32,000 nt of DNA from the NCBI GenBank assembly GCA_016699935.1, contig CP064992.1:60001-92000 (forward strand), read 5' to 3'. A program made the translations under genes and the position numbers. How positions within the stretch are numbered: the first letter of the stretch is position 1; each line of letters starts with the position of its first letter. Source of the DNA: Candidatus Saccharimonadota bacterium (GTDB lineage Bacteria > Patescibacteriota > Saccharimonadia > Saccharimonadales > UBA4665). The notes beneath the pieces were generated by a model, which was not told the DNA's origin, did not search any database, and saw only the letters and a list, made by a program, of their open reading frames with translations. This document shows positions 30,565-30,890 of this stretch, one piece after another.

Positions 30565-30880
30565 GCGGCCGTAAGCCGCTAGTAATCGTCGCGCAAGCGA
30601 CATAATTAGTAGTGGCCCTCTGTAGGCGTCCCGGCATGACTGTTGTGAGACACTACAACACTTGCGAAAATGCGACGTGGCAGTGTTTTCGCGTTGTATG
30701 TGCTCACAACAGTCACCGAGATGGTGAAAGCGGGCCGAGGTTTTTTGCCTACTTTTTGTCCGGTACAAAAAGTAGGTCGCTGCGCGGGCGCGAAAGCCCG
30801 CATTGTCGGCCTGACAGTCCGAAAACTGCCTATTGCATGTATCTGCTGTAAAAAGTGGCGAAAACACAAGCAGTATGCGA
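30565..30880. ncRNA. Candidate structured RNA or eno 5' leader (unclassified)
   Basis: Dense, stable hairpins in a non-coding gap:
- 30565-30579: gcggc/cgtaa/gccgc
- 30588-30601: GCAA tetraloop
- 30638-30714: 12-bp perfect closing stem, gactgttgtgag/ctcacaacagtc, with internal pairing
- 30748-30776: 12-bp perfect stem
- 30784-30801: gcgggc/gcgaaa/gcccgc
- 30732-30737 pairs with 30805-30810, enclosing the last two hairpins
- about 30834-30878: hairpin 12 nt before the eno ATG
Several frames on both strands are open, as expected for GC-rich structure rather than coding sequence. Confidence 0.4.
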
Positions 30881-30890
30881 TGATGAATAT

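Follow-up and report, generated by a model that had tools for sequence, protein, structure and literature searches.

Short intergenic repeats and orphan structured RNAs are the described systems that come closest to the sequence reported here. The BOX elements of Streptococcus pneumoniae and the ERIC and bcr1 repeats are noncoding and intergenic, are assembled from modules that differ in number among copies and strains, are patchily distributed, are predicted to form stable folds as single strands, recombine between copies, and carry no transposase of their own; the hairpin of a BOX-type repeat is formed by complementary end modules. REPs are simple hairpins of 20 to 40 nucleotides (nt) that occur in high copy number and flank a RAYT gene. 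The sequence described here lies in a window of 32,000 nt from a Candidatus Saccharimonadota bacterium (assembly GCA_016699935.1, contig CP064992.1, positions 60,001 to 92,000 of the forward strand). Positions 30565 to 30830 of the window constitute a single member of a family of structured noncoding elements not previously described, located between the enolase gene (eno) and a divergently transcribed fusion gene. We judge it an even matter, from comparison of sequences, whether this new family of intergenic elements is expressed as an RNA of its own from the plus strand.

The element shares all of the general properties of BOX, ERIC, and bcr1 given above and, with optional modules, at least four occupied sites, and mosaic copies, has the makeup of a BOX-like modular intergenic repeat. 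It differs from these repeats in having no sequence similarity to them, in its low copy number (one or two copies seen per 20 to 30 kb and few metagenome matches, as opposed to the high copy number typical of BOX), and in copies that are 50 to 80% identical, with many compensated pairs and a multihelix fold with conserved unpaired motifs. With REP/REPIN-RAYT systems and IS200/IS605-derived PATEs it has in common palindromic intergenic DNA and strand-specific hairpins, and one element-bearing lineage (L034; comparison loci are referred to by L numbers) has a Y1 transposase gene within the gene cluster that holds the element. Unlike REPs, however, it is a multihelix unit of 200 to 270 nt with one copy in 32 kb, the L034 transposase is flanked by hairpins different from those of the element, and the IS200-like ends (CCCCGRCCGTCAGGYCGTGGG) that would mark a PATE are not in the element, nor is the transposase in the window or the other element-bearing loci. 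As for MITEs, H1 at one end and P5 at the other are not inverted repeats of one another, and neither terminal inverted repeats nor target-site duplications were noticed, without a systematic search for them. The large orphan RNAs raiA, OLE, ROOL, HEARO, and GOLLD, known from comparative genomics, resemble the element in size (about 200 to 280 nt), covarying helices, GNRA-type loops, and conserved junctions, but their Rfam models were unmatched, and the element is multicopy, mosaic, and missing from close relatives. Likewise, the "cuckoo" small RNAs (sRNAs) of Rhizobiales are paralogues at several intergenic sites, whose stem-loops are conserved and which are oriented without regard to the neighboring genes, whereas the element is larger than typical sRNAs and has no recognizable intrinsic terminator, conserved promoter, or evident seed or target. 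Overall, the element behaves most like BOX, ERIC, and bcr1 repeats or like orphan structured noncoding RNAs and is a member of none of these groups.

The original prediction, made from the letters of the window, had matched the region to none of RNase P, SRP, 6S, a T-box, and the fluoride (crcB) motif. In searches with Rfam 15, whose models include those RNAs, tmRNA, riboswitches, and self-cleaving ribozymes, no family matched the region, either at the gathering score or at E ≤ 10. At the gathering score the window contained only a tmRNA (13501 to 13880, minus strand, 65.5 bits) and one tRNA (11010 to 11083, minus strand), both elsewhere, and at E ≤ 10 the region 30350 to 31000 gave only chance-level matches to snoRNA and miRNA families. 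The permissive threshold gave the same null result for L034, L028, L030, L027, L009, and L004. No description of such an element in Saccharibacteria was found in the literature.

The copy in the window is composed of the following parts.

30565 to 30579, plus strand: hairpin H1, an optional 5' module (GCGGC, loop CGTAA, GCCGC), conserved in sequence with little covariation
30580 to 30612, plus strand: hairpin H2, an optional 5' module, with an inner stem of 30588-30592 and 30597-30601 capped by GCAA
30614 to 30736, plus strand: helix P1 and the long irregular hairpin P2, from RNAalifold and pair counts
30737 to 30746, plus strand: unpaired junction CGAGGTTTTTT, with family consensus GCCGAG(G/T)TTT
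30747 to 30777, plus strand: hairpin P3, a 13-bp stem of a T run and an A run with loop CCGGT, paired in 99% of alignment cells
30784 to 30801, plus strand: hairpin P4 (GCGGGC, loop GCGAAA, GCCCGC), variable among copies
30813 to 30830, plus strand: hairpin P5 (GACAGT, loop CCGAAA, ACTGCC), with one A.C mismatch in the window copy

Five helices are kept across 9 to 11 copies, which are 50 to 80% identical to each other (up to 84%, excluding orthologues). Alignment with MAFFT followed by RNAalifold gave 61 pairs for 6 copies and 44 pairs for 11 copies, with 21 compensatory pairs in each case. In the alignment fitted to a covariance model built from six copies (model core, 30607 to 30806), 92.7% of cells were standard pairs, compared with 40 to 46% when partners were slid by 1 to 3 columns; 34 of 61 pairs changed on both sides, and the covariation score was reached by 0 of 500 shuffles. 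These statistics are pair counts and shuffles. An absence of covariation in relatives, which the original prediction had named as refuting it, is clearly not what was found, as compensatory changes occurred at 21 to 34 pairs. The pattern is that of a conserved structured RNA, with compensated pairs in diverged homologues.

The same comparison bears on whether the region encodes a small protein. An open reading frame (ORF) of 79 amino acids occupies 30612 to 30851, and it begins MALCRRPGMTVV, similar to the N terminus MALWRLPGPTVV of an ORF in the L027 copy. Indels of 1 or 2 nt between copies break this frame, substitutions are paired across stems with no codon-position pattern, and the ORF in L030 starts elsewhere. 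Protein coding was ruled out on the frame-breaking indels and has a negligible probability.

The fold is selected on one single strand only, the plus strand of the window, because an excess of G-U pairs, folding energy, and GNRA-type loops all favor that strand. G-U and U-G pairs numbered 37 (in 17 columns), compared with 8 of the mirror-image A.C and C.A combinations, and in each of the 12 copies the fold of the element strand was more stable than that of the complement, the difference being 1 to 18 kcal/mol with a mean of 9.4. GNRA-type loops are confined to the element strand. In the 336-nt stretch that was folded, minimum free energy was −138.2 kcal/mol, compared with −105.2 ± 4.9 kcal/mol in dinucleotide shuffles (z = −6.67; 0 of 100 as good); relative to its shuffles the opposite strand folded similarly (z = −6.91).

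Both of the perfect stems in the original prediction exist, the first with 13 bp (30637-30649 with 30703-30715) and the second with 12 bp (30748-30759 with 30765-30776), as do its GNRA-type hairpins at 30588 to 30601 (loop GCAA) and 30784 to 30801 (loop GCGAAA). Its three-way-junction helix (about 30734-30738 with 30808-30812) appeared in the single-sequence fold only and is without a counterpart in seven other copies; as a conserved helix enclosing P3 and P4 it was rejected, being specific to the window copy. The comparative data instead pair 30614-30618 with 30732-30736, forming P1, which closes P2 and has C-G to A-U covariation at two positions. P2 consists of helices 30628-30632/30717-30722, the perfect 13-bp stem, 30654-30659/30693-30698, and an apical helix (30664-30673/30683-30692) with invariant U-G and G-U pairs on the plus strand. 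In the junction, GCCGAG, invariant in all copies, and the U run that follows it are unpaired. P3 has 7 of 13 pairs changed on both sides. Sites complementary to the conserved unpaired GCCGAGGUUUUUUGC occurred in the window at chance frequency.

The remaining hairpins H1, H2, P4, and P5 are optional modules among the copies, as is a further module, M, described below. H1 is present in the window, L030, L034 (both sites), L004, and L112 and absent from L009 and L027. In H2, an imperfect outer stem surrounds the inner stem, the loop varies among copies (GCAA, GUAA, GUGA, or GUCA), and one compensatory change from G-C to A-U was found (L030). P4 is swapped for other GNRA-capped hairpins in some copies (consensus caps GCGAAA, GAGA, or GGAA) and is missing at site 2 of L034. 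P5 has the family consensus GGCAGTCCGNRARCTGCC (GGCAGUCCGNRARCUGCC as RNA) and is conserved in sequence in the window, L030, L034 (both sites), L107, L110, and L112.

The covariance model scored the window copy at 210 bits and found no other copy within the 32 kb. Comparison of the gap with other loci by BLASTN had located the structured part in the same gap of L009 and, in part, of L004, with a second L009 copy between a ppsA-like gene and the pyruvate kinase gene (pyk), antisense to both. A metagenome scan for a pattern of GCCGAGKTTTTYTGC and the P3 hairpin, the best-conserved part, added L027 and L030; the pattern that the six known copies satisfy had seven metagenome matches, of which two were clear homologues and two were doubtful. 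With the model, copies were found in both the eno/fusion and ppsA-pyk gaps of L034 to L039, L107 to L109, and L110 to L111 and, antisense to both neighbors, in the gap between pyrG and a response-regulator gene in L112. The model found none in L041 (CP065016.1), L052 to L055, the L042/L045 group, or L113/L114, and no element precedes eno in L001, L002, L005 to L008, L010 to L012, L041, L042 to L051, and L052 to L056. Searches of viral contigs (by three pattern scans and afterward with the model on 48 loci), of phage records, and of plasmid records gave no homologue. As far as seen, the family is restricted to a sublineage of Saccharimonadales (Saccharibacteria/TM7).

Dispersed copies, which the original prediction named as refuting it and as the sign of a repeat element, were found at several sites in relatives; a check for the 12-bp stems elsewhere in the window returned none above chance. 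The gap between ppsA and pyk in the window itself (25018 to 25252) was considered as the place of a degenerate copy, an idea that was rejected, as local alignments were no better than those of shuffles. Two Bacteroidetes-like contigs from one metagenome, L028 (6848 to 6995) and L033 (8740 to 8911), contain a similar unit of a closing stem, a hairpin, GCGCCGAGTTTTTTTGC, and a T/A-run hairpin, upstream of TAnnTTTG-type promoters of gpmI and pyrG. They scored 28 to 36 bits with the model, yet had been selected by the search pattern; their homology is uncertain, and they were not counted as members.

Five genomic contexts were distinguished.

Site 1: the eno/fusion gap, with the element in the same sense as eno
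Site 2: the ppsA-pyk gap, with the element antisense to both neighbors
Site 3: the gap between pyrG and the response-regulator gene, with the element antisense to both neighbors
Site 4: L027, where a CHAP hydrolase gene and femAB converge, with the element between their 3' ends
Site 5: beside another gene start, in the 5' half of L030

Sites 1 and 2 are both occupied in lineages as distant as L009 and L034. The folded strand at sites 2 and 3 runs antisense to each of the neighboring genes and therefore is not an untranslated region (UTR) of either; if the element is an RNA, it consequently needs its own promoter. Filled and empty sites could not be aligned to define exact insertion boundaries.

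At site 1, the flanks of the element in the window are as follows.

30418 to 30462, minus strand: promoter-like block of the fusion gene at the left edge of the gap, kept in 11 syntenic loci; its role is predicted from sequence
30463 to 30560: heptamer tandem array in the left third of the gap, about 10 to 14 units of AAGAGAT or GTTAAGA
30855 to 30893, plus strand: putative core promoter and start of eno, a conserved block

The gap measures 473 nt, as originally noted, between the ATG of the fusion gene (30417, minus strand) and that of eno (30891). The fusion gene (28759 to 30417, minus strand) combines a D-2-hydroxyacid dehydrogenase with a histidine-phosphatase-type phosphoglycerate mutase. 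The fusion protein matched 26 reference-genome loci, all from Saccharibacteria/Patescibacteria, at up to 80% identity, and 11 of these loci retain the divergent order of eno and the fusion gene, with gaps of 43, 48, 84, 161, 189, 202, 213, 298, 548, 587, and 938 nt. Conservation within these 11 gaps is confined to the two ends. At the left end, TGGCATACT lies on the minus strand at 30435 to 30427, 9 nt before the fusion-gene ATG, and a comparable TGGCATACT block stands a few nucleotides before this ATG in relatives. At the right end, a −35-like GTGGCG (30855 to 30860) is followed by 18 nt, TGC and GATGAT (30876 to 30884), 6 nt, and the ATG (30891 to 30893); the consensus in relatives is GTGGC, about 18 nt, TGn and GAWGAT, 6 nt, and ATG. 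This block is kept beside the ATG in L034, L107, and L110 and in most of the 11 relatives, the exceptions being L010 and L011, which have the two shortest gaps and a divergent sequence here. In L007 the two end blocks occupy the entire 48-nt gap. We infer that the two blocks are back-to-back extended −10 promoters that yield leaderless mRNAs. The lack of a Shine-Dalgarno sequence before eno, noted originally and confirmed in the sequence, would be explained by this predicted leaderless mRNA.

Similar starts were observed elsewhere. The layout of a −10-like hexamer, 6 to 7 nt, and ATG recurs before pyk, a response-regulator gene, and one further gene, and TGn with a −10-like hexamer 6 to 9 nt before the ATG, without a Shine-Dalgarno sequence, is found at eno, the fusion gene, pyk, the response-regulator gene, and another gene. 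Such leaderless-looking starts are located at 30855 to 30893 and 30418 to 30435 in the window, 100 to 120 in L030, and 11730 to 11760 in L113.

The structured element lies between the two end blocks, and its position speaks against the first candidate of the original prediction, a cis-regulatory 5' leader of eno (riboswitch, attenuator, or thermometer). In favor of a leader, the element shares its strand with eno and immediately precedes the gene, eno has no Shine-Dalgarno sequence, and, read from the sequence, GCGAAAA can pair with either GUGUUUUCGC or GGUUUUUUGC. Between the element and the ATG, however, stands the promoter-like block, 6 nt from the ATG whether or not an element is present. 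Since the element is upstream of this block, it could not serve as a leader for eno transcripts initiated there, and the final hairpin predicted before eno has the conserved core promoter as its 3' arm. The element is also absent upstream of eno in most relatives and occurs antisense or 3' to its neighbors at the ppsA-pyk, pyrG/response-regulator, and femAB sites. Judged from sequence rather than from mapped 5' ends, it appears to lie outside the 5' UTR, and it has no consistent association with one gene. The likeness to glycolytic or pyrimidine riboswitch and attenuator leaders is one of location, by eno, phosphoglycerate mutase, pyk, and pyrG; such leaders lie in 5' UTRs, whereas the element is upstream of a promoter-like block or antisense. 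A role as eno leader is accordingly very improbable.

At 4 of the 5 sites, a heptamer array separates the 5' side of the element from the start of the oppositely transcribed gene, and arrays of other unit sequences lie 5' of most inspected copies in relatives (L009 site 2 is without a clear array). The array may be part either of the element or of the divergent gene's promoter. In the window, arrays with a 7-nt period were observed at 52 to 82, 2902 to 2926, 22088 to 22112, 23544 to 23576, and 30463 to 30560, with unit sequences GTAGATG, CTCTTGT, ATTTTAC, ATTCGAA, and AAGAGAT; the array at 2902 to 2926 lies within the leuS reading frame. In lineages lacking the element, the eno/fusion gap carries unrelated long palindromes of heptamer-like units.

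These arrays suggest another explanation, in which the element would be a regulatory or insulating module, of DNA or RNA, for the divergent neighbor (the fusion gene, pyk, or the response-regulator gene), acting with the heptamer array that abuts the leaderless promoter of that gene. The same order of gene start, promoter block, heptamer array, and element pointing away is seen at four sites, and two arrays of the window that have no element also lie 36 to 57 nt upstream of gene starts, both on the minus strand. The L027 copy, by contrast, sits between convergent 3' ends without a divergent promoter, relatives without the element retain the same genes and promoter blocks, and a binding site in double-stranded DNA needs no strand-specific fold. 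This explanation is considered unlikely.

Transcription signals for a separate RNA were sought with the sigma-70 and canonical terminator consensuses, which may not apply in Saccharibacteria. The scan of 30380 to 30920 gave no terminator-like site and one promoter-like site, no more than in shuffles. The match (TTAAGA, 16 nt, and TATGAT, at 30522 to 30549) is the sole one on the plus strand and lies within the heptamer array. By these consensuses, the element does not show the promoter and Rho-independent terminator of a trans-acting sRNA.

Copies of the element are mosaic. L107 and L110 are 100% identical in the fusion gene, virtually identical in eno, and identical in the heptamer arrays, H1, H2, P1, and the 5' strand of P2, but a segment of approximately 230 nt, which starts at the P2 tip and extends past P5, is about 25% different, and P3 of L107 at the eno/fusion site equals P3 of its own ppsA-pyk copy. 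L112 and L030, with 99% identity in pyrG, match exactly from the junction across P3 to P5 and up to pyrG, whereas 5' of the junction they are unrelated, with different P2 types, heptamers, and upstream genes. This join is either a recombination between copies or an assembly join at a repeat; whichever the cause, it requires further copies. In copies of type B, the P2 tip is a perfect palindrome of 12 to 14 bp in which the inner ATTGCC/GGCAAT is constant and the outer 6 to 8 bp are wholly different in each strain and site, with zero mismatches (L034, 6425 to 6470; L107, 2040 to 2085; L110, 930 to 975; L112, about 12010 to 12050). In the L034/L107 lineage, the 35-nt module M (GGTCGAGATGACA...) follows the element one to three times, the number depending on the strain. 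Directly 3' of the element, the module of about 35 nt (GGAGATCTCTCC..CGGTCGAGATGACAGTGRGG) was observed at 6200 to 6260 and 12390 to 12500 in L034 and at 1690 to 1850 and 8160 to 8270 in L107; even strains that are identical in the flanking genes have different numbers of it.

An IS200-type Y1 transposase gene is located between the fusion gene and ppsA in L034 to L038. In L034 the IS200-like insertion occupies 8403 to 9024, between the fusion gene and a hydrolase gene (also in L035 to L038), encodes a transposase of 145 amino acids, has direct hairpins CCCCGGCCGTCAGGCCGTGGG and CCCCGACCGTCAGGTCGTGGG, and is absent from the window. A regular-expression search allowing up to three mismatches found these end hairpins only at the insertion itself and not in the element, and tblastn did not find the transposase in the window or other element-bearing loci. 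A link of the element to this transposase was rejected on these two results.

These observations bear on a second explanation, that the element is a selfish or neutral repeat at the DNA level (REP-, BOX-, or MITE-like) with no RNA role. Its hairpins would then matter as single-stranded DNA or cruciforms in replication, recombination, or HUH-type transposition, copies would merely build up between divergent promoters, where they do no harm, and any RNA would be a by-product. Several findings agree with this explanation and weigh against a dedicated RNA. The copies are dispersed and patchy among close relatives, and the ppsA proteins of L041 and L052 to L055, which lack the element, are as close (92%) to that of the window as those of element-bearing lineages. 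Because presence is patchy and relatives manage with gaps of 43 to 48 nt, the genes on either side can do without the element. Selfish repeats are expected to have optional modules, to form mosaics, here with internal breakpoints, and to occur together with small repeats, here the heptamer arrays and module M, and unrelated long palindromes fill the same gap in other lineages. The hypervariable tip helix, always perfectly paired, points to palindrome dynamics at the DNA level, and perfect stems of 12 to 14 bp that change wholesale fit template switching in DNA better than stepwise RNA compensation. Hairpins that tolerate G.T pairs and GNA or GNRA loops also stabilize single-stranded DNA, and an alignment made with a covariance model is biased toward the model's own structure. 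The regions upstream of the copies showed no promoter common to all (−10/−35 candidates occur in some, at inconsistent positions), and no intrinsic terminator of canonical consensus was found after the element. The Y1 transposase in the same gene cluster of L034 to L038 also fits a DNA repeat, but the end hairpins and transposase are lacking as described. Other observations are likewise at odds with a purely selfish repeat: the copies are old and diverged, with many compensated pairs and no recent burst; copy number is low; the fold has several helices and conserved unpaired motifs, as opposed to a single long hairpin of terminal inverted repeats; and viral contigs, phage records, and plasmid records gave no matches. 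We regard the DNA repeat as somewhat doubtful and yet a serious competitor of the RNA reading.

RNA and selfish repeat are a choice and not strict alternatives. The old, diverged, and compensated copies, the branched architecture, the conserved unpaired motifs, and the GNRA-type caps suggest an RNA, as do the strict strand preference, the low copy number, and the occupation of the same two sites in L009 and L034. Of the three candidates in the original prediction, an independent small or medium-sized RNA is thus the best supported, through strand-specific structure and strong covariation, with transcription itself only predicted. The REP- or MITE-like candidate was right about dispersed, recombining copies and patchy presence, but the element is not a stack of simple palindromes and has one copy in 32 kb.

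In the preferred reading, that of a separately expressed RNA, the element is a self-contained module set between two divergent promoters of leaderless type, that of eno and that of the fusion gene. Optional H1 and H2, P1 closing P2, the unpaired GCCGAGGUUU junction, P3, and optional P4 and P5 make up the fold. Transcription would proceed separately from the side of the heptamer array to give a stable RNA of about 200 to 270 nt, the folded molecule probably being RNA rather than single-stranded DNA, and this RNA may act in trans or as a protein-binding scaffold. Each genome would contain a few copies, among which segments would be swapped through homologous recombination or gene conversion, and copies would be gained and lost between close relatives. 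A stronger form, in which the family is a new functional class of structured RNA in Saccharibacteria (a ribonucleoprotein scaffold or ribozyme-like), with a few antisense paralogues in the eno/pgm, ppsA/pyk, and pyrG clusters and a variable P2 tip that is a specificity determinant and not a palindrome by-product, is a long shot.

Other features of the window were observed. Three conserved genes are split by frameshifts, namely eno (30891 to 31746; stop at 31233 and continuation in another frame), leuS (1081 to 3672; two pieces), and a hydrolase gene (27816 to 28660; two overlapping ORFs), and these look like indel errors of long-read assembly rather than pseudogenes. A direct repeat of 100 nt, 95% identical, is present at 14183 to 14282 and 16204 to 16303 (spacing, 2,021 nt), adjoined by shorter repeats at 14138 to 14167 and 16166 to 16195. 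GC skew at the site of the element showed neither an origin-like nor a terminus-like feature.

For annotation, the element should not be labeled an enolase leader or riboswitch. If it is a selfish repeat, it marks breakpoints of recombination between strains and can cause misjoins in assembly, and gaps between leaderless promoters would be where compact genomes tolerate extra DNA. To our knowledge, Saccharibacteria and other members of the candidate phyla radiation have very small genomes in which almost no noncoding RNAs beyond the universal ones have been characterized. For these organisms, a unit of 200 to 270 nt with more than 20 compensated pairs, a strand preference, and a location in glycolytic and pyrG gene clusters is a concrete candidate RNA.

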